In this document: positions 1 through 52,616 of the stretch, in pieces
Layout of the letters: each line of letters opens with the position of its first letter
How positions within the stretch are numbered: position 1 is the first letter of the stretch
Source: a virus
Length of the DNA: 52,616 bases
Reading direction: 5' to 3' (one strand)
IMG/VR virus record: IMGVR_UViG_3300024981_000016
Position numbers and translations under genes: made by a program
The notes under the pieces: generated by a model
Seen by the model: the letters and a program-made list of their open reading frames with translations, nothing else
Databases searched by the model: none
Told to the model about the DNA's origin: nothing

Positions 1-127
1 CGCCTCAGGGGAAACGGTAGACTGGCCGCGATGCTCGCTTTTCAAGTCCAAGCAGCCCGAGCAGTCCGAGCAGTCCGAGCAGTCCGAGCAGTACGAGCAG
101 CGCGAGCAGCCCGAGCAGCCCGAGCAG
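1..127. repeat. Terminal overlap, copy 1 (identical to 52490-52616)
   Basis: Base-by-base identity of the first and last 127 nt of the window. Confidence 0.97.
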
Positions 128-441
128 TACGAGCAGCCCGAGCAGTCCGAGCAGTCCGAGCAGTCCGAGCAGTACGAGCAGCGCGAGCAGCCCGAGCAGC
201 CCGAGCAGTACGAGCAGCCCGAGCAGCCCGAGCAGCGCGAGCAGTCCGAGCAGCCCGAGCAGTCCGAGCAGTACGAGCAGCGCGAGCAGCCCGAGCAGCC
301 CGAGCAGCCCGAGCAGTACGAGCAGTTGGTACAATTGTCGCAGTTCTTGAGGCTATCGAGCGCCTTCTGCGCGGCTTCCTGTGACCCGAAATACTCTACG
401 GAGCACTTGTTGCCTCGGTCGTCGTTCAGCCAGTTCGTCAT
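1..441 (-). CDS. Cys-Ser-X tripeptide-repeat protein, 5' part. The gene wraps the circular junction and continues from 52489 down to 52175; 251 codons in total.
   Basis: ATG at 441-439 with GAGGA 7 nt upstream. The frame stays open through the whole 9-bp array and is in phase with ORF 52175..52540 once the ends are joined. N-terminus MTNWLNDDRGNKCSVEYFGSQEAAQKALDSLKNCDNCTNCSYCSGCS... Confidence 0.75.
   Translation of the reverse strand, partial: MTNWLNDDRGNKCSVEYFGSQEAAQKALDSLKNCDNCTNCSYCSGCSGCSGCSRCSYCSDCSGCSDCSRCSGCSGCSYCSGCSGCSRCSYCSDCSDCSDCSGCSYCSGCSGCSRCSYCSDCSDCSDCSGCLDLKSEHRGQSTVSPEA
50..328. repeat. Tandem array of 31 units of 9 bp, GAGCAGNNC on the plus strand (NN = TC, TA, CG, CC)
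   Basis: Counted units: degenerate first unit 50-58, then 29 perfect-core units 59-319, then degenerate last unit 320-328. Units 2-10 (59-139) and 11-19 (140-220) are an exact 81-bp duplication. Confidence 0.97.
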
Positions 442-465
442 GTTCGTATCCTCGTTGAATTGGTG

Positions 466-810
466 TCAGGCGCAGACCAGAAGGTTACGCGGCCGCTCAA
501 ACTCGATCCCGCGCGCCGCCATGCGCTCCTCAGATTCCGAGATGCGGCGGACCGTGGCGAGATAGCCGGCCAGACGTGCCGGCAGCGTCGCCTTGGCGTT
601 CGCCACGTCACGCGAATATCGGCCCTCGGCGATGGTGCGCTGCTTGACCTGAATGAAGAGGATCGCGTCATCGACTTGGCGCACTGATCCGCGCCATGCG
701 TCGACAAGGCGCTCGTCCGCCGGGACAGAAGGCGGAAGCAGCGGGGGCCGGGACAGGCTCGTGAGAGTGCCGGTCATGTCGGAGAAGGTCTGGTGGAGGG
801 AAGCGTTCAT
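466..810 (-). CDS. Hypothetical early protein
   Basis: ORF track 466..813. ATG at 810 overlaps the upstream stop (TGATG); alternative GTG at 813. Sits in a tight minus-strand operon. Confidence 0.65.
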   Translation of the reverse strand: MNASLHQTFSDMTGTLTSLSRPPLLPPSVPADERLVDAWRGSVRQVDDAILFIQVKQRTIAEGRYSRDVANAKATLPARLAGYLATVRRISESEERMAARGIEFERPRNLLVCA

Positions 811-1148
811 CACGCAGCTTCCTCGACAGGGGCCGCGTCAGCGCTCCAGCTAGCAACGCCGTTGATCCAATCGTCCATTCGGGTCGAGCCGTCCGCGTAT
901 TTCCACTCATGGCGCTGGAACCAGCGAAGGCCGTCGAACTGCTGCCAGATGCGATAGGCAACGAAGCCGCCATGCGGCAGGGACGGATACCAAGGGCCAT
1001 CGGCACACTTGCACCAATCCGTGACCCGCGTTCCTGTCTGCCGTTCCATCTCCCTCTCCATCCTCTCCCGCCTGCCGAGGCTCTGCGGGTGTTTCGCCAC
1101 CTCGGGCAGGCCGATGCGTGGCTGGTGTTCAGTGAGCGGAATATGCAT
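810..1148 (-). CDS. Hypothetical protein, first gene of the early-left operon (start uncertain)
   Basis: ORF track 810..1160. The ATG at 1148 lies inside an operator and upstream of the predicted -10, so the internal ATGs at 1061 or 1049, each preceded by a GGGAG-type purine run, may be the true start. Confidence 0.6.
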   Translation of the reverse strand: MHIPLTEHQPRIGLPEVAKHPQSLGRRERMEREMERQTGTRVTDWCKCADGPWYPSLPHGGFVAYRIWQQFDGLRWFQRHEWKYADGSTRMDDWINGVASWSADAAPVEEAA

Positions 1149-1168
1149 TATGCATACCAAGGTGTCAA
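1140..1168 (-). promoter_or_regulatory. Predicted sigma70-type early-left promoter (-35 TTGACA, 17-bp spacer, -10 CATATT)
   Basis: Minus-strand TTGACA at 1168-1163 and CATATT at 1145-1140. Overlapped by an operator motif. Confidence 0.5.
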
Positions 1169-1191
1169 GCAGTAATGTGCAAAAAGCATAT
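1141..1191. promoter_or_regulatory. Two 17-bp operator-like inverted repeats (ATATGC-N5-GCATAC at 1141-1157; ATGTGC-N5-GCATAT at 1175-1191)
   Basis: Same ATRTGC-N5-GCATAT motif as in the cI/cro intergenic region (3621-3684). Located between divergent genes. Confidence 0.6.
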
Positions 1192-1215
1192 TATTTTTGA
1201 CATCGCCCCCTATCC

Positions 1216-1797
1216 ATGGGAGAAAGGGTCGAATCACCGTTGTGGTTGACGATGAAAATTCAGCGCGACGATTTCCCTGCAATGGCCGCCCTCTATCGGG
1301 AGGGAGCTACCCTTCAACAGATTGGTGAAAGGTACGGGATTTCGCGCGAGCGCGTGCGACAGGTCATTCGCGGAAAGTTTGGGCTAGGACACCGGCTCGA
1401 CGGCCGCTCGGCTCGGTCTCGTCATACGCAGGAGGGCATGGCCGCGACGCGCGACGCGCGACTGCTGGAAAAATACGGCTGCACAAAAGAGCAATATGCC
1501 AGTTTGATTAAAATTGGTCGTCGCATGACGGAAAGCGGCGTTCCATTTTGCAGAACGCCTACTGGTGCCTGGCATTCACAGCGCCGTACCGCCATGAGAA
1601 GAAATATCCCATGGGAGATCAGCCTGTGGGATTGGTGGATGGTCTAGAAGGTTTCTGGAAAGTGGCAACAGCGCGGACGTGGCCGAGGCTATATGATGTG
1701 CCGCATTGGCGACCGGGGGCCATATTCGATTGACAATGTCTATATCGCAACAGGGTCGCATAATGCGGCCTTGAGGCACGATCTGCGTAATTGATGG
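1216..1797 (+). pseudogene. HTH (sigma-70 region 4-like) plus HNH_3-like C-terminal region, interrupted by an in-frame TAG at 1645-1647
   Basis: ORF 1216..1647 ends ...NIPWEISLWDWWMV*. The same frame continues KVSGKWQQRGRGRGYMMCRIGDRGPYSIDNVYIATGSHNAALRHDLRN to a TGA at 1795-1797. The HTH is ATLQQIGERYGISRERVRQV. Confidence 0.6.
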
Positions 1798-1800
1798 CGC

Positions 1801-1828
1801 CGAAAAGCAAGAAGCCCCCGCTGGGGGC
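1801..1828 (-). terminator. Rho-independent terminator for the minus-strand 2638-to-2232 transcript
   Basis: Minus strand reads GCCCCC-AGC-GGGGGC followed by TTCTTGCTTTTCG. Confidence 0.6.
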
Positions 1829-2231
1829 GAGGGCTTCGAGGTCGCGTCAGGGCGTGAAGAATGGCTGCTATACCGAATAGGCACAGGGCCACATTCAGCC
1901 TAACCGTGACGGTCACAGTGGTGCGTTCCCACATAGGGATTGCCCTTTCTGGACCACGCCGGCGCAGCCCATACGGGTTGCGGTCAAGCGCACCATCGAA
2001 GGTCTTAACCCGGCCTTCATGGCAGCATCGGTCCGCCTCTGGCTGAGCGCTCAGCTTTTGGCGGCCCTGTGCGGACCCGGAATGCCGACGCGGTTGGCCA
2101 CGCGGACTCCGTGCCGGTTCCGGCACAGGCTGCGGTCGTCTTCCTGGCGTTCTCCCGATTTCCAGTCGGGCGCTAGGCAGGGGCCGCAGCCTGATACCAT
2201 CATGCCGAGGCGAACCTGTCTATGCTCGTGG

Positions 2232-2456
2232 CTACACCTTAAACCGCTTCCCTTTGAGGCTTCTCGGTTTCAGCGTCTCGGCGGCCTCATGGGCATCCGC
2301 CAGGACCTTGATCCAAGCGCCGGCCTTCACTGGGATTTCCAGTTCGCCATCGAGCCAGCCACCGATCAACGACACGTCGCAGCCGAAACACCGCGCCAGC
2401 GTGTCCGGCGACCAGCGGATGATGGATAGGCATTCGTCAAGCCGTTCGGGGGTCAT
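2232..2456 (-). CDS. Hypothetical small protein, possibly DNA-binding
   Basis: ORF track. ATGA overlap with the upstream RHH gene. Confidence 0.65.
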   Translation of the reverse strand: MTPERLDECLSIIRWSPDTLARCFGCDVSLIGGWLDGELEIPVKAGAWIKVLADAHEAAETLKPRSLKGKRFKV

Positions 2457-2638
2457 GCCTGGCCAACCGTCTCGCTGTCCTCGTCCGCCTCGACAATCTC
2501 GATATGCCCTAGCGAGATCAGCGCATCCCGTAGCATCTCGGCGGCCGTATCCTCCAAGCTTCGCTCCATCTCATTCGCGGCTCGGCGGAGACCGATGGAT
2601 ATGTCAGTAGGGAGGGTGAGGGCGAGTTTCATGCCCAC
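2453..2638 (-). CDS. Ribbon-helix-helix (CopG/Arc-like) protein
   Basis: MKLALTLPTDISIGLRRAANEMERSLEDTAAEMLRDAL fits an RHH beta-alpha-alpha pattern. Start is GTG 2638 or ATG 2632. Confidence 0.6.
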   Translation of the reverse strand: MGMKLALTLPTDISIGLRRAANEMERSLEDTAAEMLRDALISLGHIEIVEADEDSETVGQA

Positions 2639-2791
2639 ATCTTGTCAAGAATCGTGGTCAAAGTCGCCTTCCTCCTGAAGGTACTTGTCAGGAGCCTCGC
2701 CTAGCGGATACCCGTGCCTCTCATTGACTCTCTTGACAAGGAGGATTTTCCTAAGAGCGCGAATAAAACGAGAACGCCACGGGAGGCGAGT

Positions 2792-3043
2792 ATGAGTGCA
2801 ATGTTTGTGGTCCAGTCCTTCACCGCCGGAAAGGGTGGGCGCCTCCAGCCCGACAGCCCTATCCAAGCACAGAATACCAGCCATGCCCGAGCCATTGCTC
2901 AACGGCTAGCCATCCGCAAGGCGCTTGTCGTGGCCTTCCAACGTGAAGGCAACCCGAAGACCGGAGAGTACGAGGACGCGAAGCTGATCGACGCGTTCGG
3001 GGCCGATATCCCGGAGGAACTCCGCGAAATGGATCGGGTCTAG
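2792..3043 (+). CDS. Hypothetical protein
   Basis: ATG 2792 with GGGAGG 5 nt upstream. This is the internal start of ORF 2714..3043. Confidence 0.65.
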   Translation: MSAMFVVQSFTAGKGGRLQPDSPIQAQNTSHARAIAQRLAIRKALVVAFQREGNPKTGEYEDAKLIDAFGADIPEELREMDRV

Positions 3044-3060
3044 CCGGGTGCGGGGCGGAA

Positions 3061-3285
3061 ATGGCTATCAGTCACAGGATCAGGCCGCGTTACGCGAGCA
3101 AGAATGAGGAAATCGTCGCGAAACTGCGGGAGGCGGCCGGAGCTGGGCCGCCGATCGATCCGGTTATGGCAGCGAAAAAGAAGTTTGCCGAGGCGGCTAT
3201 TTTGTTGGCTCTGGCTCACGGCGGGAACTGGCGGGTTCAATTTGAGCCGGAGAACGGTCTGGCTCAAGTAGTTCGGCGTCTTTGA
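3061..3285 (+). CDS. Hypothetical protein
   Basis: ORF track. Its 3' end overlaps the repressor 3' end convergently by 89 nt. Confidence 0.5.
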   Translation: MAISHRIRPRYASKNEEIVAKLREAAGAGPPIDPVMAAKKKFAEAAILLALAHGGNWRVQFEPENGLAQVVRRL

Positions 3286-3619
3286 TATAGCCGTCGATTG
3301 ATCTCCAGAGCGGCTGGAGGGCTGCCTCAGGCAGCTTATCAATGCGGCTCAAAAGTTCCTTGACGGCTTCCTCGCCGGACACTTTCTCGAAAGGTCCGGT
3401 TGGACCCTCCCCGGTAAGAAGCCACGCCTCGCTTACCCTGAAAGCCTTGGCGTATTTTGCGGCGGCGCGAGGGATGCCTCGTATGCCCTGCTCGTGCTGA
3501 ATGTAGGTCTCGTATTTCCAATCAAAAAAGCGGGCAGCATCTTTCGCAGTCCGGAAACCGCGGTCAATACGGGCCCTTTCCAGTCGTTTTGCGAAACTCG
3601 GTCGATCATCAAATGCCAT
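3197..3619 (-). CDS. cI-like XRE-family HTH repressor with no S24 peptidase domain
   Basis: MAFDDRPSFAKRLERARIDRGFRTAKDAARFFDWKYETYIQHEQGIRGI is an XRE-type HTH. Divergent from a cro-like gene across an operator-rich spacer. ATG at 3619. Confidence 0.8.
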   Translation of the reverse strand: MAFDDRPSFAKRLERARIDRGFRTAKDAARFFDWKYETYIQHEQGIRGIPRAAAKYAKAFRVSEAWLLTGEGPTGPFEKVSGEEAVKELLSRIDKLPEAALQPLWRSIDGYIKDAELLEPDRSPAQIEPASSRREPEPTK

Positions 3620-3620
3620 G

Positions 3621-3693
3621 ATATGCATTTTGCATGGTATCGATATGCATTTCGACTTGACTACGTGATGTGCATAACGCATATTACGCGACC
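3621..3693. promoter_or_regulatory. Immunity switch region: three operator-like sites (3621-3637, 3643-3659 half-site only, 3668-3684) and a rightward promoter (-35 TTGACT 3657-3662, -10 CATATT 3680-3685)
   Basis: Repeated ATRTGC-N5-GCAT motif. The 17-bp promoter spacer is overlapped by the third operator. The -10 ends 8 nt before the cro-like ATG. Confidence 0.6.
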
Positions 3694-3888
3694 ATGAGCG
3701 ATATCGACGTCAAGCAAATCCGCGCCGACCGCGGCATCACGCAAAAGGAACTGGCCGATCTTGTCGGCGTGAATCTTTCGACCGTTTGGCGGTGGGAGAA
3801 CGGACATTCTCCGCGCGGCACGGCTCTGCGCCTACTTGAAAATCTGTCGGCATCGGCCACCTCCGGGCCAGATCGGGTAGCCCCATGA
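3694..3888 (+). CDS. Cro-like XRE-family HTH regulator
   Basis: MSDIDVKQIRADRGITQKELADLVGVNLSTVWRWENG. First gene of the rightward operon. Confidence 0.8.
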   Translation: MSDIDVKQIRADRGITQKELADLVGVNLSTVWRWENGHSPRGTALRLLENLSASATSGPDRVAP

Positions 3889-4010
3889 CCATCATCGGCC
3901 TCCCCGGCGACCGCTGGCTCGCTTTCATCCCCGGCATAGGCACGATTCAAGGCAGCGGCCGCGATGAGGTTTTGCGCGAGGCAGCGCGCAGACGGGCGAG
4001 GGCGGCATGA
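3885..4010 (+). CDS. Small hypothetical protein (41 aa)
   Basis: ATGA overlaps at both ends. Hand translation MTIIGLPGDRWLAFIPGIGTIQGSGRDEVLREAARRRARAA. Confidence 0.4.
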   Translation: MTIIGLPGDRWLAFIPGIGTIQGSGRDEVLREAARRRARAA

Positions 4011-4111
4011 GCGTCTGGCTTGCCCAGCCCGTAGACGGTGAGTTCATCGCGATCCTCGCGGCGGTCATGGCCGCGTTTCTCGCCGGCACATGGGCGGGGA
4101 GGCGCTCGTGA
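4007..4111 (+). CDS. Small hydrophobic protein (34 aa)
   Basis: ATGA and GTGA coupling. MSVWLAQPVDGEFIAILAAVMAAFLAGTWAGRRS has one hydrophobic segment. Confidence 0.4.
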   Translation: MSVWLAQPVDGEFIAILAAVMAAFLAGTWAGRRS

Positions 4112-4371
4112 CAATCATCCACTCCATATTCCCCAATCCGCAAGAGCCGACCTCCTCCCCGGCAAATGCGGATAAGGCCGGCGAGGCGCTGGATCCTCCC
4201 CGTAACGCCTCGCCGGCCGCCATTCCTCTGACGCCGAAATATGCGATCTGCCCTTACACGGTTCGCGTCCCCAACCGGCTCTCCATCAATGCGACCTTCC
4301 ACAACGAAGGTTCCGCGTTCCATCCGGTCTCGCTGGCGCATCTCTCAATTCAGCGGAGGGCGATGTCGTGA
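4108..4371 (+). CDS. Hypothetical protein
   Basis: ORF track 4090..4371. The GTG at 4108 overlaps the upstream stop. Confidence 0.5.
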   Translation: MTIIHSIFPNPQEPTSSPANADKAGEALDPPRNASPAAIPLTPKYAICPYTVRVPNRLSINATFHNEGSAFHPVSLAHLSIQRRAMS

Positions 4372-4676
4372 GCATCACCCGCGTCCGCGCTGGCTCATTT
4401 TCGTTCCAATGCGTGAATGGTTGCGGGCCGGCATCTGGCAGGGACACGGCCTGCCGGCCCGCTGTCAGCCGGTACGGTCGGCTGATCTGCAATAGGTTCG
4501 GGCCTCTCGCCCGGGGTCTTTTTCGCGCGTCGAATGCTTTCCAGGGCTCTGCGCGCGGCCTGTCCGATTTGTTCCGGTCCTTTCTGTCTGCGGTTCGTCA
4601 TGAACGAAACCATGACGGAAGGATCATCGGAAATGTCCGAAATTCGAGTGGAGAAATCCGAAATGTTGAGCGTTGA
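4368..4676 (+). CDS. Doubtful hypothetical ORF
   Basis: GTGA coupling and higher third-position GC than the antisense ORF 4395..4820, but the product is Arg-rich and low-complexity. Confidence 0.3.
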   Translation: MSITRVRAGSFSFQCVNGCGPASGRDTACRPAVSRYGRLICNRFGPLARGLFRASNAFQGSARGLSDLFRSFLSAVRHERNHDGRIIGNVRNSSGEIRNVER

Positions 4677-5010
4677 GTTTGCGCAGTACGCTCTACGCGC
4701 CCATGTCGCCCCGGCATCGCTTGGGTCAGTAAAGACACGGCTGCGCCATGCCGCCCGGAGGCTCAAATGGACAGCGAACCGTACCAAGGACACTTGGTAC
4801 GCCGACCCCCGCATCTCCATTAGCGCCGACGAAATCCGTCAAATCGAAGAACTCACGGGACTGCGCTATGGCCGCGAAGAACTCCGCTCCGTCGAGCAAC
4901 TCATCAGCCAAGCCGACGCTCTCCTTATGGGCACGGACGAGGATTTTCATCGGCCGTTCCTTACTGCGCTCCGCGCGGTGGCTCGCCTTGCTGATCGCAC
5001 CAGAACTTAA
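4633..5010 (+). CDS. Hypothetical protein
   Basis: ORF track 4534..5010. ATG 4633 has GGAAGGA upstream; alternative starts at 4600 and 4663. Confidence 0.6.
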   Translation: MSEIRVEKSEMLSVEFAQYALRAHVAPASLGSVKTRLRHAARRLKWTANRTKDTWYADPRISISADEIRQIEELTGLRYGREELRSVEQLISQADALLMGTDEDFHRPFLTALRAVARLADRTRT

Positions 5011-5021
5011 AGGAGGATGAA

Positions 5022-5354
5022 ATGAACACCCACGTCACCGAACGCGAACTAGCCGATGCCGTCGAGGCCGATCTGGCGGGCTACCGCCTGTCGGAACCGG
5101 AGACCTACGCAGACTGGCACCGGAGGGAAATGGCGGAGAAGAAGCAACTCATCGCTCGGCATAAGCGCGATCTCAAGTTGGCAAAGGCTCGCGCCAAGGA
5201 TGGTCGGAAGGCGGCGAGGGAAGCGTGTGCGGCAGAACTCGACCGGATCGCGGCCGAGGAAGCCGCAGCGGAAGAATACACCGCATCCGCCGTCGCTCAC
5301 GCTACCGGACTGCTGACCTACCACCAGACCGCGCTCGACGCGCTGCCGGAGTGA
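5022..5354 (+). CDS. Hypothetical charged/coiled protein
   Basis: AAAGGAGG upstream of the ATG. ORF track. Confidence 0.7.
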   Translation: MNTHVTERELADAVEADLAGYRLSEPETYADWHRREMAEKKQLIARHKRDLKLAKARAKDGRKAAREACAAELDRIAAEEAAAEEYTASAVAHATGLLTYHQTALDALPE

Positions 5355-5363
5355 GGCAGTGCA

Positions 5364-5615
5364 ATGCGGCAGAAGAAGCCCAAGACCATCCCAGTCCGCG
5401 TCCAACGCCTCGCCTCCGCCTGTAGGGGGGGGCAGACGGTCGTTTTGACTTTCGGCCAAGGTGCCTCATCAGAGCCAACCTACTGCCTCAACCCGAGCGG
5501 CAAGCCGGTTGGGCAATGGACGTTTCGGCGCGCGTTGGCGCTAGGGCTTATCTCTCCGGTCGGGGATGGTCTGTTCCCCGGAGCCGAAAGCCAGACGTAC
5601 AGGGCGGCGCTGTAG
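5364..5615 (+). CDS. Hypothetical protein
   Basis: ORF track, same operon. Confidence 0.6.
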   Translation: MRQKKPKTIPVRVQRLASACRGGQTVVLTFGQGASSEPTYCLNPSGKPVGQWTFRRALALGLISPVGDGLFPGAESQTYRAAL

Positions 5616-5616
5616 G

Positions 5617-6162
5617 ATGACTCTTCTCGCTGTCGATCCGGGTATCAGCAATGGCTTGGCGGTCATCAATGACGCGCGGGAGCTGTTGCTCGCTACGGAA
5701 ATTCCAGTGATCGGGGAGGGCGCCCATAGGCGTCTCAACCTCACGTCCTTTGCCGACATCATCACGCAGTTTCATGTGATGCGTGCCGTCATCGAGGACG
5801 TTGCAGCCCGTCCGGGGCAGGGCGTTTCATCCATGTTCCGGTTCGGTCGAGCAACTGGCGCTCTGGAAGGAGCGCTCGCCGCGCTGAAAATCCCGACAAC
5901 CTTTGTCTCGCCCGCCCGCTGGAAAAAGGACCTCGGCGCCAAGGCGAAGCAGGACGAAGACATCCGCGCGCTGGCGATCCAGACCTGGCCGACCATGGCG
6001 CATCGGTTCGCGCGCAAGGCTGATCATAACCGTGCCGAAGCGGCGCTGATCGGGCTGTGGGCGCTTCAACATTCCGGAATTCGTGTGGCGGAGCAAAATA
6101 TCAAGCCAATCCCCTCCGGTTCTCGCGTCTTCGTAGGAGGAGAAGGATGGCGCACGCTGTGA
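5617..6162 (+). CDS. ruvC: RuvC-like Holliday junction resolvase
   Basis: LLAVDPGISNGLAV, AVIEDV and ADHNRAEAALIG match the RuvC acidic catalytic motifs. ATG 5617. Confidence 0.75.
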   Translation: MTLLAVDPGISNGLAVINDARELLLATEIPVIGEGAHRRLNLTSFADIITQFHVMRAVIEDVAARPGQGVSSMFRFGRATGALEGALAALKIPTTFVSPARWKKDLGAKAKQDEDIRALAIQTWPTMAHRFARKADHNRAEAALIGLWALQHSGIRVAEQNIKPIPSGSRVFVGGEGWRTL

Positions 6163-6905
6163 ACAACCCCTTCGAGAAATTCGGCATCGAACATATCAGT
6201 GTGTCCCAGCTCAACACATGGGCGGCCGCGCCTGGGGTGTACGTGCTCGAAAGACTGTTGGGCCATAAAACACCGGTCGGCGCAGCCGCACATCGCGGCA
6301 CGGCTGTGGAGGCTGGCGTAATCGCCGGCTTAATGGGGGCTCCTATCAACGAGGCGATCGATATCGCCAACGCCGCGTTTACCGAGAAAACGGCTCTTTC
6401 GGCCGACCCCCGAAGAGACAAAGAACGCGAGGGCCTCGCCGGCATGGTTGAGCAGGGCATCTCTCTCCTTTCCCCGTGGGGGAAGCCGGATCGTACCCAA
6501 GTCCGCAAGCTGTGGCACATGGAGGGCATAGCGGTTCCGGTGCTGGGGTTCTCCGATGCTGAGTATGACCAGCATGGTCTTCTTATTGATCTGAAGACGA
6601 CGCACGCGCTTCCCACTTCAATAAAGACCGGGCACGCCCGGCAGGTGGCATCCTACCTCGGGTCCGGCGCAAATATCGCGGGCGGAGTCGCCTACGTAAC
6701 CCCGAAAAAAGCCGCGCTCTACCGGCTGGAGAACGCCGGCGCTCATGTCGCGGCGCTCACCCGCATGGCGCATTCGCTCCAGAATTTCCTTGCCCGCGTA
6801 TCCACACCGGACGAAGCGGCAAGCCTCCTTACCGTCGATACGGAAAGCTATTTCCTTGCGGACCCCAGGGCTCGTCAATCGGCATTCGAGGTGTTTGGCG
6901 TATGA
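6147..6905 (+). CDS. PD-(D/E)XK (RecB/Cas4-like) nuclease family protein
   Basis: [18 protein letters not shown] (D...D-x-K) followed by [10 protein letters not shown] (Q-x-x-x-Y). AGGAGGAG upstream of ATG 6147. Confidence 0.6.
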
Positions 6906-7369
6906 AACATATTCCACTCACGCAGGGCCTCCACGCCATTGTTGACGACAGAGACTTCGAAAGTCTGTCTCAACGAAAATGGTTTGCCGCCAGAGATAAG
7001 CGCGGACTCGTTTACGCACGAACCAAGATTGATGGTCGCGCAGTAGGGATGCACCGCTTAATTTTGGGCACACCCAAAGGCATTCAAGTTGATCACAAAA
7101 ACAGAGATACGCTCGATAATAGGCGGAGCAATATTCGCCCAGCAACTTCTCAGCAGAACAACGCAAACAAGAGTTTTCAGTCATCGCGGTGGGGGTATCG
7201 GGGTGTGTTCAAGAACCCCTCCATGCGCTCGTTTGGTGCACAAATCCGAGTTAATCGCAAGCACATCTATTTGGGCACTTTCCCCACAATAGAGGAAGCA
7301 GCACGCGCGTACGACGCAGCGGCGGCTAAGCATTTTGGGGAGTTCGCTTCGCTGAACTTCCCCGTCTGA
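6902..7369 (+). CDS. HNH (HNH_3) plus AP2-domain homing-type endonuclease
   Basis: [24 protein letters not shown], then YRGV...[39 protein letters not shown]. Confidence 0.85.
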
Positions 7370-7435
7370 ATTCCCGAAGGGAATAGCATGCCGGCAGCTA
7401 GATGCCGGCGCGACGCGCAAAGCGCAGAAAGGTAC

Positions 7436-8074
7436 ATGGAAATGGGCTTCGGGCTGAATATCGGAAACGGCGGCGATTTTCTGCCGATCATCAAAATCGA
7501 CGGCAAGGACGGCGGGGTTGAGCGCACGACTTGGGATGGGCAAAACAAGGGAACCGAAACGGTCTCCGACCTTGTCTGCCTCATGGATTTTGCCACGCTC
7601 AAAGTGGGCTGGGTCGAATTCACGGACAAGGGGCCGGACAAGCGTCTTGTCGCCATCGGCGATCCGCTCCCCGAAAAGCCGGGCGAAAAGTTCAAGCAGG
7701 GAATCCAGCTCGTGGTTCTCTTGCCTGGCGGTCTCGGCTGCCATGAGATTTGCACCACCGCCTCGGGGGTACTTGGCGCCCTGGAAAGCGTCTACGACCG
7801 GGCAATTGAGGCCTCAGAATGGAGCAGCGGTAAAGTCCCCGTCATCCGTCTGACCGAATTCAAAAGGGAGAAGACCAAACATGGTGCCCGCGCCATCCCG
7901 GTCTTCGAAATTCTCGACTGGAAAGATCGCCCCTCCGATTTTGAGGCCCACAAAGCCGCCCCAAGACCGCGCGCCGCTATGCCTTCCCAATCGAGACCCG
8001 CCGAAACAGGCTCCACGCAGATGACGCCGCCCCCAGCGAAGCAGCCGGCGCCAGCGAGCCTCGATTTCGGATGA
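7436..8074 (+). CDS. Hypothetical replication-module protein (an SSB-like role is speculative)
   Basis: ORF track 7388..8074 with internal ATG at 7436. Pro-rich linker and short C-terminal LDFG tail. Confidence 0.6.
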   Translation: MEMGFGLNIGNGGDFLPIIKIDGKDGGVERTTWDGQNKGTETVSDLVCLMDFATLKVGWVEFTDKGPDKRLVAIGDPLPEKPGEKFKQGIQLVVLLPGGLGCHEICTTASGVLGALESVYDRAIEASEWSSGKVPVIRLTEFKREKTKHGARAIPVFEILDWKDRPSDFEAHKAAPRPRAAMPSQSRPAETGSTQMTPPPAKQPAPASLDFG

Positions 8075-8141: not shown

Positions 8142-10295
8142 ATGACGAGGCGAACCTTGACGGTACAGGCCCCCGACGATTTTTCAAGCGCAGCCCAATG
8201 GGCTGACGCTTATCGGGCGCTTGGCCTCGCCGTGATTCCGGCAAGAGGGCAAGAAAAAATCCCGCTGGGGAAATGGCAGGAATTTCAAAACGGCATACCG
8301 CAGGCCGTTCATGATCGCTGGTATGGAGAAAGCGGAGATAACCGGTCCAATTACCGAATGGGCTTCCTGACCGGCGCCGCTTCCATTGGCGACGGGTGGA
8401 AACTTCTGCTGATCGACCTCGATGAGAAAGGAGCCGTATCGGGCTCCGGGACCTGGGACCAATGGATTGGTGAAAACGAGCTCGGGTGCGACCCCGAGAC
8501 ATGGCGCGCAAGAACGGGAGGCGGCGGACAGCATATCTATTTCAAATACCCCGCCCATCTCCACATCCGCAATACGCAAGAGACAATCGCTGGGATTGAT
8601 GTGCGTGCTGAGGGCGGCTTCGTCATCACGCCCCCATCACGCCACGTCAGCGGCAAGCAATACGCGTGGCTCTATTCTCCCTTCGAAACCGACCTCGCCG
8701 AAGCGCCTGGCTGGCTGCTGGAAAAGGTTGGAGCTTCGGAAGCACCTTTCAAAACGACTACGGCACCAAAGGACAGGCTGACCCTCCCTGAGCAGGCAAC
8801 CGACGCCTGGGGGCATATCGTCGACGGTCGCGACGCTTACATGCGCGACCTGGTGTGGGCCTCCGTGGTGGACTGGTACCGGGAATGTCCGATCCCGCCG
8901 GGCGATGCCGAAAGCGAACGCAAGATGCTGGAGGCCTTCGCCACCTATGAACGCAAAGTGCGCCCACAGGACCCTTCCCTGACGCTTGAAGGCGAGAGCA
9001 GAGGGATTTCTGCATTCCGCGCCAAATGGGCTTATGCCATGCGGCAATGGGACGGGAAGGTTTCCGAGGCCGCCAAACGGCCGGGGGCGATTAAGCAGCC
9101 GGCATATGATTTCAGCGTCTCGCATGGCGCTCCGTCATCTTCTCTGGATCTTGTGGCAACACCATTCAAATGGATTGACCCGGCGCTGATCCCGCCACGA
9201 CGTTTTATATATGGCCGGCACTATATCCGACAGTTTGTCTCGACAACTGTAGCACCTGGTGGCGTCGGGAAATCATCCCTCGGCATTGTCGAGGCGCTAT
9301 CGATTGCAAGCGGGAAGCCGTTGCTGGGGGTCACCCCGGGCGAACGTGGGCGAGTGTGGTTATTCAACGGCGAAGACCCAGTCGAGGAACTCCAGCGCCG
9401 GATAATGGCCAGTACGTTGCTATACCGATTGTCTGAATCCGACGTATCGGGAAACCTGTTCATGGACAGCGGTCGCGACACTCCAATTGTCATCGCGGAG
9501 CAGACCAGGGATGGCGCAAAAATCCTTACGCCAATCGTTGAAGCGATTACCAAGACCATACGCGATAACCAGATCGACGTTCTCATTGTCGATCCCTTCG
9601 TATCCAGCCACCGGGTTTCAGAAAACGACAACAATGCCATTGAGCGGGTTGCCAAGACGTGGGCGACAATCGCCGGAGCCACCAACTGCTCCATCGATCT
9701 GGTGCACCACAGCAGAAAGACGGGAGGCGGTGAAGTCACCGTCGAAGACGGGCGAGGCGCTTCCGCTCTTTTGTCCGCAGCCCGGTCCGCTCGTGTGCTC
9801 AACCAGATGACACAGGAAGAGGGCGAAAAGGCCGGTGTCGAAAACCATCGACTGTTTTTCCGGGTGGACAACGGGAAAGCGAACCTAGCCCCGCCTACAT
9901 CGGCGGCGGAGTGGTATCATCTTAAATCCGTGCCCCTCGGCAATGGCGAGATGTCGAAATCCTTCGGGGTCAACGTCGGAGAGGGAGATAGCGTCGGCGT
10001 AGTCTCTCCGTGGTCGTGGCCTGATCCTTTTAGCGACATCAGGCTTGAAGACCTTCGCCGTGTCCAGCAGGCCGTTTCTTCTGGAGGCCCGTGGAGAGAG
10101 AACTCCCAAGCTAACAATTGGGTTGGAATACCTGTCGCATCAGCTTTGAAACTGGACCCAAAGAACAAGGCCAACATTAGGAAAATAGTCGCGCTGATGG
10201 ACATGTGGTTGCGGTCCGGAGCCTTCGTCAGAGTTACAGGGAAGGATGCGAAAAGGATGGAAAAAATGTTCATAGAGGTTGGCGAATGGGCATGA
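8142..10295 (+). CDS. Bifunctional primase-polymerase (prim-pol) plus RepA/DnaB-like ATPase (helicase)
   Basis: LLIDLDEKG, GGQHIYFKYP and IDVRAEGGFVITPPSRH are prim-pol motifs. Walker A VAPGGVGKSS and a RecA-like core lie downstream. Confidence 0.85.
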   Translation: MTRRTLTVQAPDDFSSAAQWADAYRALGLAVIPARGQEKIPLGKWQEFQNGIPQAVHDRWYGESGDNRSNYRMGFLTGAASIGDGWKLLLIDLDEKGAVSGSGTWDQWIGENELGCDPETWRARTGGGGQHIYFKYPAHLHIRNTQETIAGIDVRAEGGFVITPPSRHVSGKQYAWLYSPFETDLAEAPGWLLEKVGASEAPFKTTTAPKDRLTLPEQATDAWGHIVDGRDAYMRDLVWASVVDWYRECPIPPGDAESERKMLEAFATYERKVRPQDPSLTLEGESRGISAFRAKWAYAMRQWDGKVSEAAKRPGAIKQPAYDFSVSHGAPSSSLDLVATPFKWIDPALIPPRRFIYGRHYIRQFVSTTVAPGGVGKSSLGIVEALSIASGKPLLGVTPGERGRVWLFNGEDPVEELQRRIMASTLLYRLSESDVSGNLFMDSGRDTPIVIAEQTRDGAKILTPIVEAITKTIRDNQIDVLIVDPFVSSHRVSENDNNAIERVAKTWATIAGATNCSIDLVHHSRKTGGGEVTVEDGRGASALLSAARSARVLNQMTQEEGEKAGVENHRLFFRVDNGKANLAPPTSAAEWYHLKSVPLGNGEMSKSFGVNVGEGDSVGVVSPWSWPDPFSDIRLEDLRRVQQAVSSGGPWRENSQANNWVGIPVASALKLDPKNKANIRKIVALMDMWLRSGAFVRVTGKDAKRMEKMFIEVGEWA

Positions 10296-12837: not shown

Positions 12838-12915
12838 TGCGCGGTGGGGAAGTCTGGCCATCCCGTCCGGCTCATAACCGGGAGATCGTCCGTTCAAATC
12901 GGACCTGCGCAACCA
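12838..12915 (+). tRNA. tRNA with CAU anticodon (elongator Met or Ile2 type), CCA encoded
   Basis: Hand-folded cloverleaf: acceptor TGCGCGG/CTGCGCA (one G-U), D arm GGGA/TCCC, anticodon arm TCCGG-CTCATAA-CCGGG, variable AGATC, T arm GTCCG-TTCAAAT-CGGAC, discriminator A, CCA. Confidence 0.9.
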
Positions 12916-17515: not shown

Positions 17516-19642
17516 ATGGCTGACCGGACTGCATCCACATCGGATGCGGATGCGCCGTCTCGTCTTCTGGATGATGAGGCGCTCTTCGCTCGCATCAAAG
17601 GGTGGTACCGCGAGGATTGGGACCATCATCACGAGTGGATGAAGGGCGACGGTCAATTCGACGGCGGGGCTGAAGAAGATTTCAATTTCGTCGCCGGCCA
17701 CCAGTGGTCCGATGAGGAGCTCAGGAAGCTGGAAGCTGATGGGCGGCCCGCAAGTGTGTTCAACCGTATCACGCCGATGGTCGACAGCGTAGTTGGCTTC
17801 GAAGTTTCCAATAGGCAGGAAGTCCGGTTTCTCCCGCGCCAGATGGGGGCTTCAGGCATCAACGAACTGCTGACGGCGGCGGGTGATTGGTTCCGTGACC
17901 AGACCGATGGAGAGGACGAGGATTCTGACGCATTCAGGGACGCTGTAATTTGCGGCAAGGGATGGACTGAAACCCGTATTGACTACGAGACCAATCCTGA
18001 CGGCGATCCCAGCATCGAGCGTATCGATCCGATGGAAATATTCCCGGACAAGTATGCTCGCAAAGCTAATCTCGTGGATGCAAGGCGCATCTGGCGTATC
18101 CGCCGTATGACGTTGGAAGAGGCGGTTTCCATGTTCCCGGACGTGGATGAGAGCGCGCTTTCTGCCGGATGGGCGGATGCCAGCGCCACGTCGCCCGGCG
18201 AACGCGGACAGGAGCGCTACGAGAACGAAGATATCCCGCATATCGATGACAATAACACCATCGTGGAATGTCAGTGGTGGGAACTCGAACCGTTCGTCCG
18301 CTATGTCGATGGTGTTACCGGAACCGTCGAGGAGGTTCCTTTTGATGATTTCCAGCTTCTTATGGATAGGCTGGGGCAGCTTTCGCCGGAACAGATGGTG
18401 CTGATGGGTATTGCCCCCCCCAATCAAATGGTGGTGCAGAAGCGCCGCATTTACCGCAGGGCTTATCTTGGATCGATCATCCTCGGCAAACCTGAACTGC
18501 CTGTGGAGGGGCATTTCACCTATAAGTGCATCACCGGCAAGCGAGACCAGACCAAGGGGCAATTCTACGGCCTGGTACGGCCCATGAAAGACCCGCAGCG
18601 ATGGCTGAACAAGCTCTTTAGCCAGATCATGCACATCGTCAATTCCAACGCCAAGGGAGGCATTCTTGCTGAGCGCGGCGCCTTCGAGGATGACAGAGAG
18701 GCCGCTGCCAATTGGTCGCGCGCCGATGGCATCGTGTGGATGAACAAGGGCGCCATAGCCAAGCAGCAAATCATGCCAAAGCCTGTCGCCGCCTTCCCGG
18801 ATGGGCAGGCCAACATGCTTCAGTTCGCTATGGGTGCGATGCCAATGGTTACTGGCGTCAATCTCGAAATGCTGGGCATGAGCGAACGCCAGCAGGCCGG
18901 TGTTCTTGAATTCCAGCGCAGGCAGTCTGCGGTCACCATCCTCGCCACCTTGTTCGATAGCCTACGCCGTTATCGCAAGGAGCATGGCCGGTTGATGCTG
19001 CGCCTGATCCAGAAGTTTCTGTCCGATGGTCGGCTGGTCAAGATTGCTGGAGGCGATTATCCGCAGTTCGAGAGGCTGGATCGATCCAAGACGCTCGGCG
19101 AATATGAGGTCATCGTTGACGAGGCTCCGAACTCTCCGAATGCCAAGGAGCGGAACTGGTCCATCATACAGTCGATGATGCCCATGATCGGACAGGCGAT
19201 GACGCCGCAGATCGCGGCCGGGTTGTTGCGGTACTCACCACTCCCTGAAGGGGTGGTCAGTCAGATCGCTGAAAGTCTCACCCGTCCGCCACCTCCACCT
19301 CCTCCGGAGGCAGAGGTGCTGAAGCGGATCGATTTGGCGAAGCGGCTGGCCGAGGTGGACAAGGATGCGGCCGCGGCTGAAAAGTCGCGGGCCGACAGCA
19401 TGGCAAGACAGGCGGCCACATTTGCCGAATTGGCACCGTTTGTCGCGATGACCTCACCGGAATTGCCTCAGGCGCCGGTGCCGTCAGGGCCAATTCCGGG
19501 CCTCGATATACCGGTGGGGGCGGCAACGCCACCTCCCATGCCATCGATACCAACTCCTCCCAGCGATAGCGGTCCGGGGATGCCGCAACCGCCGATGGCG
19601 CCGATGCCGTTTGCCGTTCAGCCTGGTGGCATGGCGCAATAA
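17516..19642 (+). CDS. Portal protein with a Pro-rich C-terminal tail
   Basis: 708 aa. Lies downstream of terminase and upstream of scaffold and capsid. Contains FVAGHQWSDEELRKLEADGRPASVFNRI. Confidence 0.8.
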   Translation: MADRTASTSDADAPSRLLDDEALFARIKGWYREDWDHHHEWMKGDGQFDGGAEEDFNFVAGHQWSDEELRKLEADGRPASVFNRITPMVDSVVGFEVSNRQEVRFLPRQMGASGINELLTAAGDWFRDQTDGEDEDSDAFRDAVICGKGWTETRIDYETNPDGDPSIERIDPMEIFPDKYARKANLVDARRIWRIRRMTLEEAVSMFPDVDESALSAGWADASATSPGERGQERYENEDIPHIDDNNTIVECQWWELEPFVRYVDGVTGTVEEVPFDDFQLLMDRLGQLSPEQMVLMGIAPPNQMVVQKRRIYRRAYLGSIILGKPELPVEGHFTYKCITGKRDQTKGQFYGLVRPMKDPQRWLNKLFSQIMHIVNSNAKGGILAERGAFEDDREAAANWSRADGIVWMNKGAIAKQQIMPKPVAAFPDGQANMLQFAMGAMPMVTGVNLEMLGMSERQQAGVLEFQRRQSAVTILATLFDSLRRYRKEHGRLMLRLIQKFLSDGRLVKIAGGDYPQFERLDRSKTLGEYEVIVDEAPNSPNAKERNWSIIQSMMPMIGQAMTPQIAAGLLRYSPLPEGVVSQIAESLTRPPPPPPPEAEVLKRIDLAKRLAEVDKDAAAAEKSRADSMARQAATFAELAPFVAMTSPELPQAPVPSGPIPGLDIPVGAATPPPMPSIPTPPSDSGPGMPQPPMAPMPFAVQPGGMAQ

Positions 19643-20699: not shown

Positions 20700-20887
20700 C
20701 CCGGCATAGCCGGAGACTTCGTCTCGCCCAACGTTACGGGCGGGCGGCATAGGGGCCGCCTCAAAATTCCCTCTCGGTAGCTCCCCGATACGAGCATGTT
20801 CGCAGGCCCAGAGCGTCACTGGTGTCCCGTTGGCTGCACGACACGCGCGTCTCAACCCACCCGCAATTTCCAGAAGGAAACAAGACC

Positions 20888-41387: not shown

Positions 41388-41402
41388 AGGTTCAGCGAAC
41401 CT
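41388..41402. repeat. Palindrome AGGTTCAGCGAACCT, right of the attP core, abutting the integrase stop
   Basis: Exact reverse complement of 41160-41174. Confidence 0.8.
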
Positions 41403-52053: not shown

Positions 52054-52175
52054 AGCATCCCTCCATCGACCGCCGCCCCAATCAGGATGCAGACGACAAT
52101 GATCGCGGTGAGCATCCAGGGACGCTCGACGGAGAACTCGCAGAAGGCGTTGAGAAGGATGTCGGCGGTACGCAT
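52050..52175 (-). CDS. Possible 41-aa single-TM protein
   Basis: Hand translation MRTADILLNAFCEFSVERPWMLTAIIVVCILIGAAVDGGML. TGATG coupling to the repeat-protein stop. Confidence 0.4.
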   Translation of the reverse strand: MRTADILLNAFCEFSVERPWMLTAIIVVCILIGAAVDGGML

Positions 52176-52616
52176 CACTCTGCCACCTCGACTTCAACGC
52201 CAGCGAGCTTCGCCATGTCGGCGAGCGCGTCCTTGTCGCTGTCGTAAAACCGGGCCGGATTGATGGGCGATCCGCTTTCGCGATAGATCAGCATCGCCGC
52301 CAGTTCGGTGTTGAAGAACCGTTCGAGCTTCTGGCCGGCTTCGCCGGCAAGCGTGACGACCCAGCCGGCGCGGCAATGCGTCGTTCCGCAGGTATGCCAG
52401 GCGTCCATCCTGAGCGCGCCGGGTTGAATGGCCGCCTCATAGACCTTCCGGTTGATATCCTCGATCTTCGGGATGATCGGCGCTCCGAGCGCCTCAGGGG
52501 AAACGGTAGACTGGCCGCGATGCTCGCTTTTCAAGTCCAAGCAGCCCGAGCAGTCCGAGCAGTCCGAGCAGTCCGAGCAGTACGAGCAGCGCGAGCAGCC
52601 CGAGCAGCCCGAGCAG
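52175..52616 (-). CDS. Cys-Ser-X tripeptide-repeat protein, 3' part (C-terminal globular domain; 52490-52616 duplicates 1-127)
   Basis: ORF 52175..52540 has no ATG. Its frame is continuous with the frame opened by ATG 441 after circularisation. C-domain ...LRMDAWHTCGTTHCRAGWVVTLAGEAGQKLERFFNTELAAMLIYRES... Confidence 0.75.
   Translation of the reverse strand, partial: CSGCSGCSRCSYCSDCSDCSDCSGCLDLKSEHRGQSTVSPEALGAPIIPKIEDINRKVYEAAIQPGALRMDAWHTCGTTHCRAGWVVTLAGEAGQKLERFFNTELAAMLIYRESGSPINPARFYDSDKDALADMAKLAGVEVEVAE
52490..52616. repeat. Terminal overlap, copy 2 (identical to 1-127); includes the first units of the 9-bp array
   Basis: Base-by-base identity with 1-127. Confidence 0.97.

Follow-up and report, generated by a model that had tools for sequence, protein, structure and literature searches.

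What might a 9-bp tandem repeat that sets cysteine at every third codon be doing in the early region of a phage genome? The repeat lies at one end of the window, the 52,616-nucleotide stretch of viral DNA analyzed here (IMG/VR record IMGVR_UViG_3300024981_000016). It could be a product of assembly, a site that acts as DNA, or part of a gene. We therefore asked whether the repeat is translated, whether its length is real, to which proteins its product is related, and what the product may do.

A junction-spanning gene with an array of Cys-x-x units

The first 127 bp of the window are repeated exactly at 52490-52616, a terminal overlap of the kind that marks an assembly as circular or permuted. 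A preliminary description of the sequence had proposed joining the contig ends. Trimming one copy of the overlap yielded a single ORF on the minus strand, 441..1 followed by 52489..52175 (756 nt, 251 codons). The contig break point falls inside the Cys array, yet the entire array is internal to the contig, and end-joining contributes the C-terminal domain only. The ATG at 441 with GAGGA 7 nt upstream, the junction-crossing frame and the coupled stop at 52177-52175 were all found as described, and the product is exactly the one quoted. The A of the TGA stop doubles as the A of the start codon of a 41-aa ORF, the two overlapping as TGATG; this ORF is called as a gene in two related loci (L004 and L008) and is not conserved beside homologs elsewhere.

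The array is open in all six frames, as had been pointed out. The reading frame is proven by the relatives because these hold Cys-Ser-x with differing Ser codons: TCG in the window, AGC in a prophage of Granulicella, and TCC or TCT in other relatives. Since different Ser codons encode the same protein, a purely DNA-level role is ruled out, and on this codon comparison selection acts at the protein level on Cys-Ser-x. In the low-GC lineages L026 and L029, the repeat has decayed at the DNA level and Cys is still present at every third residue. At least 961 full-length relatives were found, and hundreds of homologs join the same N-terminus, a Cys-x-x array and the same C-terminal domain (C-domain) in one protein, bearing out both the frame and the single gene originally chosen. 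The gene, of 251 aa, is real, and the region covers its 5' two-thirds (Table 1). Gene callers can split it, and the C-terminal part from the window is listed as a separate protein of 119-121 aa in a protein collection.

Table 1. Features of the gene and its surroundings (window coordinates)
Feature	Coordinates	Strand	Basis or remark
Gene, 5' part (codons 1-147): N-cap, Cys array, start of linker	1..441	-	ORF reconstruction, full-length homologs
Gene, 3' part (codons 148-251 and stop TGA 52177-52175): short linker, all-helical C-domain	52175..52489	-	
Shine-Dalgarno-like GAGGA	449..453	-	Read directly; 7 nt 5' of ATG 441-439
N-cap (codons 1-33): two short strands and a helix, W..D..GN(K/R)CSVEYFGS.EAAQ.ALDSLK	343..441	-	AF2, conserved columns
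Cys-every-third run, C34 to C130: lead-in CDN-CTN, then 31 x-Cys-Ser units (327-49)	49..342	-	
Exact 81-bp period stretch, units 14-22 repeated as 23-31	51..226	-	
Signature motif W178-H-T-C-G-T-T-H-C-R-A-G-W190	52361..52399	-	Invariant columns
Terminal overlap	1..127	.	Exact 127-bp identity with 52490-52616
Downstream 41-aa ORF, TGATG overlap with the stop; product with a hydrophobic segment	52050..52175	-	
Upstream 115-aa ORF, same block	466..813	-	

The gene shares its strand with cI and precedes Gam/Gp157-like, exonuclease-like and NinB/Orf genes, which puts it in the early-left operon, where it had been placed initially; the phage is temperate and P22-like. Among homologs, one follows cI/cro in an early operon (L005) and another lies near a PD-(D/E)XK nuclease gene and a weak Acb2/Tad1-hairpin gene (L007). 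No conserved partner gene was found across 58 loci.

The array consists of 31 nine-bp units at 327-49 (TRF score 382), the 279 bp first reported, and its pattern gave 42 matches against 3.9 expected. Together with the two lead-in triplets (CDN and CTN), it places Cys at every third residue 33 times in a row. TGC-TCG had been considered invariant and x restricted to G, D, Y or R. The former holds for units 1-30, the final unit being TGC-TTG, and the latter holds after unit 1, which has N. An 81-bp duplication does exist, although at gene-order units 14-22 and 23-31 (130-210 and 49-129) rather than at units 2-10 and 11-19 as proposed; the longest exact repeat within the array measures 95 bp, its copies being offset by 81 bp (51-145 = 132-226). 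The array is mildly acidic, with a net charge of -4 over 93 aa.

In 120 full-length homologs the periodic position is Cys in 99% of cases, and C34, C37, C40 and C43 are invariant among relatives. The x residues are D, G, R, N, Y, H, S or C in 96% and never hydrophobic, with no higher-order periodicity (flat autocorrelation). The Ser (+1) position may instead hold T, H, A, R, I or V. Arrays in the family range from 3 to 56 units. Across 192 arrays, unit number favors even values (117 versus 75) and multiples of 4 (p ~0.003); the alleles of the window phage, with 33, 24, 13 and 12 Cys, break this trend, and we therefore give it little weight.

Array length among near-identical phages

The same phage occurs elsewhere with 10 (P0126), 11 (P0001) or 22 units (P0121 and P0125), against 31 here, and the flanks of these alleles are 99.5-100% identical to the window. 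Because genomes with near-identical flanks differ in unit number, the array is an in-frame coding VNTR. The indels, of 81 bp and 180 bp, are confined to the array, and all four lengths are in frame. The early proposal of a length-variable protein rather than an on/off switch thus stands: a phase-variable locus was rejected since the 9-bp unit is divisible by 3 and no allele shifts the frame. Length may change by slippage or by unequal recombination between units. A diversity-generating retroelement as the origin of the NNC-type variable codon was not supported, as the window holds no second array copy beyond the terminal overlap that could be a template, and no reverse transcriptase was found among the subset of ORFs scanned.

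Could the repeat or its length be an assembly artefact? Cys arrays do break short-read assemblies, as the window and about 10% of the homolog-bearing contigs end inside them. Moreover, the 10- and 11-unit alleles are what deletion between direct repeats of at least 45 bp would leave, a change that short-k assembly could generate, and some of these shorter alleles could be assembly collapses. Against this explanation, the complete 31-unit array is contig-internal and every exact repeat inside it is at most 95 bp, below k=127. The change from 22 to 31 units is an insertion with a novel junction: the 22-unit allele lacks one 81-bp block (P0121, L008), and the 31-unit allele holds a junction not present in it. 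P0125 is an independent 22-unit allele with point differences, including one Cys-to-Ser change. An artefact, or a cis-acting DNA site in place of a protein, is very improbable, the latter being opposed by the conservation of the protein across different Ser codons.

The C-terminal domain and its repeat modules

The C-domain matches phrog_31265 (E=1.9e-25), and the N-cap with the array matches phrog_15341 (E=5.7e-20). Both are clusters of unknown function and convey membership only, not biology. Searches of Pfam, NCBIfam and PADLOC with the whole protein and the C-domain gave nothing above threshold, and the whole protein had no Pfam match at E<=1. Three profiles searched against PDB sequences returned chance-level hits only (RING and CXXC fingers by Cys composition, RbfA at E=0.035, and designed Pizza proteins). 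Megablast of positions 1-8000 against a phage collection gave no match, and a full-text literature search found no description of the family. Thus, the preliminary statement that no named family fits is right for Pfam and NCBIfam, whereas two PHROGs do match and the protein, with more than 1,000 relatives, is not unique. The repeat type, absent from Pfam, NCBIfam and the PDB and not found in the literature search, is yet common in phages and prophages of many phyla, among them Alpha- and Gammaproteobacteria, Acidobacteriota, Bacteroidota, Nitrospira, Planctomycetes and Cyanobacteria.

A C-domain profile gathered at least 1,850 clusters at 50% identity (E<=1e-3). Sorted by N-terminus, the top 150 of the 1,850 clusters carry pentapeptide, Cys-x-x, short or LRR-like modules; a GTDB scan gave the same mix plus a 12-aa repeat. 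The motif W178-W190 served as the scan pattern for relatives, and its H, C, H, C, G and W are invariant in an alignment of 23 C-domain sequences (A4). The domain, about 95 aa and helical, is recognized by PxIP..IH, WHxC(x3)HCRAGW, LAGxxG..LE, LAA..IY and RF..(D/S)N..AL.DMK. The protein belongs to this HCRAGW C-domain family (phrog_31265) and, with its phrog_15341 match and the 99% Cys of its 120 homologs, to a Cys-x-x subfamily. The signature of the subfamily is W..D..GN(K/R)(C/A)S.E(Y/F/W)(F/W)GS.E.A...L.SL, with Cys in every third position thereafter.

These comparisons define, at the level of sequence, a very large unnamed phage and prophage family in which a constant C-domain is joined to interchangeable tandem-repeat N-terminal modules: the Cys-x-x array exchanges with pentapeptide, LRR-like and other solenoid repeats. 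A search for homologs with other repeat types or copy numbers had been suggested at the outset, and both were found (pentapeptide, LRR-like, 12-aa, and Cys-x-x of 3-56 units). The likeness to pentapeptide-repeat proteins drawn there received unexpected support, as many relatives carry true pentapeptide arrays ahead of the same C-domain. The protein itself is not a pentapeptide-repeat protein, since its period is 3 residues and not 5 (A(D/N)LXX) and Pfam gives no match. No homology was detectable between Cys-type and pentapeptide-type N-caps (hhalign probability 0.1%).

Pfam and structure-prediction searches had also been suggested; they returned no Pfam or PDB fold match, and the family matches were the two PHROGs. 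AF2 assigned pLDDT of 94-96 to residues 1-40 and modeled the N-cap and about the first five units confidently, with a bridge at every third residue. Over most of the array pLDDT is below 50, and in mid-array 33-50, in both models. The C-domain is predicted as an all-helical unit of about 100 aa (pLDDT about 84-97). Foldseek found nothing in the PDB at E<1 with either model, and in BFVD only two small uncharacterised phage proteins, equal to the C-domain core. As to whether the array is a right-handed quadrilateral beta-helix, the models beyond about five units are of low confidence and no PDB fold matches.

Possible roles and comparison with known systems

With a probability of about one half, we favor an early host-directed protein in which the C-domain would be the working or anchoring part and the Cys array a length-tunable, probably metal-thiolate scaffold in place of a pentapeptide beta-helix. 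The C-domain may oligomerise or interact with a conserved partner in the host, and its H/C/H/C cluster, which adjoins the N-terminus of a helix, could serve as a metal or redox site. The array would be nucleated by the N-cap and extend from it as an elongated scaffold that tolerates changes in length. Metal-thiolate coordination, and not a hydrophobic core, would hold this scaffold together in the reducing cytoplasm, and the x residues, variable and hydrophilic (D, G, R, N, Y and H), would be exposed on its surface. Standing in the position of a pentapeptide beta-helix, it most likely would play the same role, engaging a macromolecule of the host or of a rival element early in infection (takeover or anti-defence). 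The argument for a same role draws on the shared C-domain and position, the N-caps not being detectably homologous. Points against a defined metal-held scaffold are the low mid-array pLDDT, the aperiodic x residues and the sub-threshold RecQ_Zn_bind matches described below.

A possible but clearly less probable alternative is that the array is a flexible, low-complexity, thiol-rich segment whose effect scales with length, either as a sponge for metals (Zn, Cu or Fe), electrophiles or oxidants, or as a tolerant spacer between N-cap and C-domain. The mid-array pLDDT of 33-50 in both models, the lack of hydrophobic residues and of periodicity in x, and the persistence of a Cys-to-Ser allele (P0125) would fit such a segment, and so would the tolerance of 3-56 units in the family and 10-31 within a single phage. 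The family range could indeed suit a sponge or a linker as well as a rod. On the other hand, the 99% Cys spacing is kept even where the DNA repeat has decayed (L026 and L029), four invariant Cys lie directly against the conserved N-cap, roughly the first five units are modeled on it with confidence, and the alternative modules in the same position are all true solenoid repeats. A pure spacer, moreover, would not need Cys.

Two further explanations are about as improbable as an assembly artefact. The array could be a disulfide ladder in an exported or virion protein, as in the beetle antifreeze protein, a 12-residue disulfide-braced beta-helix. The regular Cys periodicity and the weak excess of even unit numbers (117 versus 75) would agree with this. 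However, a ladder is unlikely because the N-terminus (MTNWLNDDRGNK) shows no hydrophobic signal peptide or membrane segment and because the context, among early regulatory and recombination genes and not structural ones, points to a cytoplasmic protein; such a location disfavors disulfides, and no PDB fold matches. The preliminary description had listed a disulfide ladder among its possibilities.

The other explanation, equally improbable, is that Cys-Ser is heterocyclised to thiazole or oxazole as in microcin B17, GCS being a bis-heterocycle site and the product a gyrase-directed moiety that parallels gyrase-binding pentapeptide proteins. In microcin B17, the bis-heterocycle sites are G-C-S and G-S-C and the immunity protein is a pentapeptide-repeat protein (PMC10886550), and Cys-Ser and pentapeptide arrays substitute for each other on the same C-domain. 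Yet neither the large ORFs of the window nor conserved neighbours at the 58 loci include a cyclodehydratase, YcaO or other modifying enzyme, the array is internal and not a C-terminal core behind a leader peptide, and relatives may carry T, H, A, R, I or V at the +1 position.

A bolder form of the favored scaffold reading is tentative, and we consider it doubtful. It would make (Cys-x-x)n an undescribed tandem-repeat class, a metal-thiolate-cored rod or solenoid with possibly four Cys per 12-residue turn, nucleated by the N-cap, that took the place of the pentapeptide beta-helix on an effector domain common to these phage proteins. The 9-bp VNTR would then rapidly retune length and surface against a host target or defence. 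The Cys array may in this way yield a new metal-organised protein scaffold.

Among known metal sites, the CxxCxxC spacing after a helix and an FG motif recalls the RecQ Zn-binding subdomain, ferredoxin CxxCxxC and metallothionein. The N-caps gave sub-threshold Pfam matches to RecQ_Zn_bind (7 of 54; 13.9-16.6 bits versus a cut-off of 25) and Fer4_2 (2 of 54). A RecQ-like four-Cys site through C13 was not supported, as C13 is not conserved (Cys in 83 of 120 relatives, 69%) and varies in concert with residue 18, as a core residue would. No known zinc Cys motif (RecQ_Zn_bind, zinc ribbon or knuckle, metallothionein) was matched above its threshold with all four ligands conserved. We know of no described metal-binding motif with contiguous CxxC repeated 30-56 times, and our Pfam and PDB searches found none.

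The repeat rods of Qnr, MfpA and McbG, which bind gyrase in a DNA-like manner, are a known precedent (PMC10886550). They resemble this protein in combining an elongated repeat scaffold with a helical C-terminal element; they differ in that Pfam and Foldseek show no sequence or fold relationship and in that the array here is only mildly acidic. A positional analogue is orf232 of the Salmonella P22-like phages ST64T and L, an early-left pentapeptide-repeat gene between ral and 17 that differs between these near-identical phages by one in-frame 15-bp unit (bioRxiv 10.1101/2020.10.05.325894). Its C-terminal domain differs and lacks the HCRAGW motif, and tblastn with this protein did not find it.

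Another close likeness is to the "putative pentapeptide repeat proteins" of Ralstonia phages, RSK1 ORF34 (BAO04699.1) and RpY1_018 (QMP18230.1). Their C-domains are homologous to that of this protein (49-57% identity over ~80-95 aa), and they share with it the motif PxI..IH...WH..C...HCRAGWVVTLAGEAG. They too are early genes by position, the one in RpY1 coming immediately behind a cI-like regulator. They repeat a 5-residue A(D/N)LxG unit, in contrast to the 3-residue Cys-Ser-x here, and their N-caps have no detectable homology to this one. Nevertheless, they and their metagenomic relatives have the same layout of short N-cap, tandem repeat of varying number and C-domain. This natural module-swap experiment offers a way to ask what phage pentapeptide-repeat proteins do.

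Structure and length alleles of the Cys-repeat gene

Window positions 1-127 and 52490-52616 match exactly, and a 127-bp terminal overlap of this sort is what a k=127 assembly typically leaves when the genome is circular or circularly permuted. With one copy of the overlap trimmed, the minus-strand frame runs from ATG 441-439 to position 1 and then from 52489 to TGA 52177-52175, giving a 251-codon product identical to that read across the junction in the preliminary description. Direct reading of the sequence also found the reported GAGGA 7 nt 5' of the ATG. The TGATG coupling is likewise present: a 41-aa open reading frame (ORF) begins with an ATG whose A also closes the stop codon. This ORF is called as a gene in other assemblies, is conserved within this phage alone, and is absent beside homologs elsewhere. 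The 279-bp array consists of 31 nine-bp units at window 327-49, is open in all six frames, and encodes Cys at every third residue 33 consecutive times if the lead-in CDN-CTN is counted. TGC-TCG is invariant in units 1-30, and the last unit reads TGC-TTG; the variable codon encodes N once and, after that, only G, D, Y, or R. The finding is genuine and the structural description was essentially right, with one detail to correct. The exact 81-bp duplication had been misplaced at units 2-10 and 11-19; it really comprises units 14-22 and 23-31 in gene order (window 130-210 and 49-129). The longest exact higher-order repeat in the array is 95 bp, at offset 81. The full array is internal to the contig, and end-joining is needed for the C-terminal domain only.

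That the 9-bp unit yields a length-variable protein is borne out by in-frame alleles of 10, 11, 22, and 31 units. Versions of 188, 191, and 224 aa (10, 11, and 22 units, respectively) fall in a 90%-identity cluster, together with 119- to 121-aa C-terminal fragments (P0122-P0124; contigs of 52,616 and 52,625 bp) that are called separately because the contig breaks inside the array. Outside the array, the 11- and 22-unit loci match the window at 99.5-100% identity; inside it, they differ from the window by 180-bp and 81-bp indels, respectively. The 22-unit allele, which occurs on more contigs than any other, corresponds to the window allele with one 81-bp block removed. In the 31-unit allele, the junction between …DDDG and YGGR… has no counterpart in the 22-unit allele, and the 95-bp repeat is shorter than the assembly k; therefore, the 31 units did not arise from a mis-threaded 22-unit genome. 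The 10- and 11-unit alleles correspond to deletions between direct repeats of at least 45 bp, and collapse during assembly may explain them in part. About 10% of homolog-bearing contigs start or end in or beside the Cys array (L102, L113, L117, L127, L134, L135, and L139 from IMG/VR; L024, L025, L029, and L031 from GTDB), which suggests that short-read assemblies are regularly broken by these arrays or that the arrays vary within populations. P0125, another 22-unit allele found in this phage, has GSS in place of GCS in one unit and YCS in place of DCS in a second; thus, loss of a single Cys is tolerated in a circulating allele.

Homologs and their N-terminal modules

Among 5.8 billion proteins searched, the 251-aa protein has at least 961 relatives, with query coverage of 95-100% in nearly all of the best 120. 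The layout common to these 120 starts with a conserved N terminus, W..D..GN(K/R)CSVEYFGS.EAAQ.ALDSLK.C, continues with a Cys-x-x array, and closes with a C-terminal domain (C-domain) that is likewise conserved. Among the homologs, no different frame is conserved and the N- and C-terminal parts are not separate genes, in agreement with the single gene and the frame first proposed. The 120 homologs contribute 2,229 units. Cys fills 99.3% of their periodic positions, and Ser follows in 76%; at the third position, D, G, R, N, Y, H, S, or C account for 96%, and hydrophobic residues are all but absent. Which codon is used for Ser depends on lineage (TCG in the window; AGC in a prophage of Granulicella; TCC, TCT, or TCA elsewhere). 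In the low-GC lineages L026 and L029, the repeat has broken down at the DNA level and any residue may stand at +1 (e.g., CLGCMMCVDCTSCMDCRSC), yet every third residue is still Cys. Both patterns argue for a constraint at the protein level that holds for this frame and, in particular, for the spacing of Cys. We regard it as highly improbable that the array is an artefact or serves a role at the DNA level.

The protein has no Pfam, NCBIfam, or PADLOC match. Two phage families without annotated function match it, phrog_31265 over the C-domain (E=1.9e-25) and phrog_15341 over the N-cap and array (E=5.7e-20). Within the phage collection, Ralstonia phage proteins annotated as "putative pentapeptide repeat protein" share 49-57% identity with the C-domain; they differ from the window protein in placing a short N-terminal cap and 8-13 A(D/N)LxG pentapeptides before the same C-domain. 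A C-domain profile retrieved 1,850 clusters at E<=1e-3 (1,254 at E<=1e-10) from 1.84 billion representatives. We sorted 146 newly returned top matches by N terminus: at least 46 carry pentapeptide arrays, with further ones among variants such as GSNLR and GANMR; 34 carry Cys-x-x arrays; 39 are short or stand-alone proteins, some truncated; and a few have LRR-like repeats. LRR-like repeats (LPDGLTVGGxLDLSGTPITSLP) are fused to the same C-domain in P0199, P0240, P0243, and L037, and in one lineage (L052, a Burkholderiaceae MAG) a 12-aa repeat, SIASDGTVDRVL, is fused to it, roughly 110 aa ahead of the HCRAGW motif. The GTDB scan that yielded this 12-aa repeat also found prophages from many phyla to carry Cys arrays, of 4-56 units. 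Such a mixture of N termini on one C-domain shows that the C-domain is the constant part and the tandem-repeat module a swappable one. Furthermore, the Cys-type and pentapeptide-type N-caps have no detectable homology (hhalign probability, 0.1%); entire N-terminal modules, beyond the repeats alone, have been exchanged. The Cys-repeat protein is not an orphan but one subfamily of a very common, unstudied phage protein family, huge in extent, in which a constant C-domain is combined with swappable repeat modules.

Position in the phage genome

The window is a temperate P22-like phage. Megablast with window 1-8000 gave no match in the GenBank phage collection, which holds no near relative.

Coordinates of features in the window and in two other loci
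Feature	Sequence	Position	Strand	Remark
Promoter-like site, TTGACA-17-CATATT	window	1168-1140	minus	consensus match only
Terminator-like hairpin, strong, 11-bp stem and T tail	window	1837-1811	minus	consensus match only
PrimPol/AAA_25 replicase	window	8142-10295		
tRNA-Met (one)	window	12838-12915		
P22-type portal	window	17516-19642		
Capsid protein	window	20822-21961		
Tyrosine integrase	window	41402-42667		
C5 cytosine methylase	window	44844-45779		
41-aa ORF with hydrophobic stretch MLTAIIVVCILIGAAV	window	52050-52175	minus	coupled to Cys-repeat gene by TGATG
Small gene, weak Acb2/Tad1-hairpin Pfam match	L007	3929-4135		
orf-232 of Salmonella phage ST64T	L143	11086-11784	minus	

The window also holds a divergent cI-like/cro-like gene pair. 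The Cys-repeat gene lies on the cI strand, preceded by two small unannotated ORFs and followed by the 41-aa ORF, several small ORFs, and then Gp157/Mu Gam-like, exonuclease-like, NinB/Orf, DUF7694, and HNH genes. This is the layout of the lambda/P22 early-left region, as the preliminary description had it, and the relatives' genes occupy comparable early blocks. The hairpin lies upstream of the promoter-like site, and the pair brackets the beginning of a block of three ORFs, of which the Cys-repeat gene is the last. Across 58 loci there is no conserved neighbor gene; thus, the partners of the protein are probably host components and not phage-encoded. At locus L007, the region immediately upstream of the Cys-repeat gene holds the small gene in the table and a PD-(D/E)XK nuclease, surroundings that hint at an anti-defence neighborhood. 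Overall, the gene encodes a real, selected, length-variable protein of three modules in an early-operon position.

Predicted structure and comparison with known repeat proteins

AlphaFold2, run on two alignments (120 and 80 sequences), was confident (pLDDT 86-97) for the N-cap with roughly the first five Cys units and for the all-helical C-domain. The N-cap is modeled as two short strands and a helix, and DSSP assigns a bridge at every third residue, one after Cys, in about the first five modeled units; pLDDT is 33-50 over the remaining array. Foldseek found no relative of either model in the PDB and, in BFVD, only two uncharacterised phage proteins (69-74 aa) matching the C-domain core. Within the close family, H179, C181, H185, and C186 are invariant, the last (in the HCRAGW motif) directly preceding a helix in the model; the H-to-C spacing varies in distant members. 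Also invariant are C34, C37, C40, and C43, contiguous in the Cys series after the N-cap helix. A resemblance to the RecQ zinc-binding subdomain is sub-threshold (7 of 54 N-caps), and the upstream position that a RecQ-like site requires to be Cys is Cys in just 69% of relatives and co-varies with residue 18, as a core residue would; we treat it as a lead, not as evidence. Among 192 distinct arrays, even unit numbers outnumber odd ones (117 versus 75; p=0.002) and there is an excess of multiples of four (67; p~0.003), the samples being non-independent. This pattern is not seen in the alleles of the window phage itself, and the x residues have no periodicity.

We infer that the C-domain would be the working or anchoring part and that the Cys array would form an elongated scaffold, nucleated on the N-cap and exposing the variable D/G/R/N/Y/H positions. 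Since there is no hydrophobic core and the cytoplasm is reducing, metal-thiolate coordination would probably hold the scaffold together. To the reading that the array is a genuinely new metal-organised repeat fold we give a probability of about 0.2. The main rival, a flexible thiol-rich sponge or spacer, is a serious though still doubtful alternative: it fits the low AlphaFold2 confidence and the wide tolerance of array length, yet the Cys register is strict, the N-cap is dedicated to the array, and the alternative modules are solenoids. A disulfide ladder, raised in the preliminary description, seems very unlikely, and RiPP-type modification hardly more credible.

The array would take the role of the relatives' pentapeptide beta-helix, for which the only mechanistic precedent is the DNA-like binding of Qnr and MfpA to topoisomerases (PMC10886550). 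A positional and behavioral analogue is orf232 of Salmonella phages L and ST64T, an early-left pentapeptide-repeat gene between ral and gene 17 that differs by one in-frame 15-bp unit between these near-identical phages (bioRxiv 10.1101/2020.10.05.325894); its C terminus differs from that of the window protein and is not the HCRAGW domain. The Cys-x-x tripeptide array has no Pfam or NCBIfam family, no sequence or fold relative in the PDB, and no description in the literature searched. Pentapeptide-type repeat proteins encoded in phage early operons are the known kind to which this protein belongs, and the Cys-x-x array is new within that kind.
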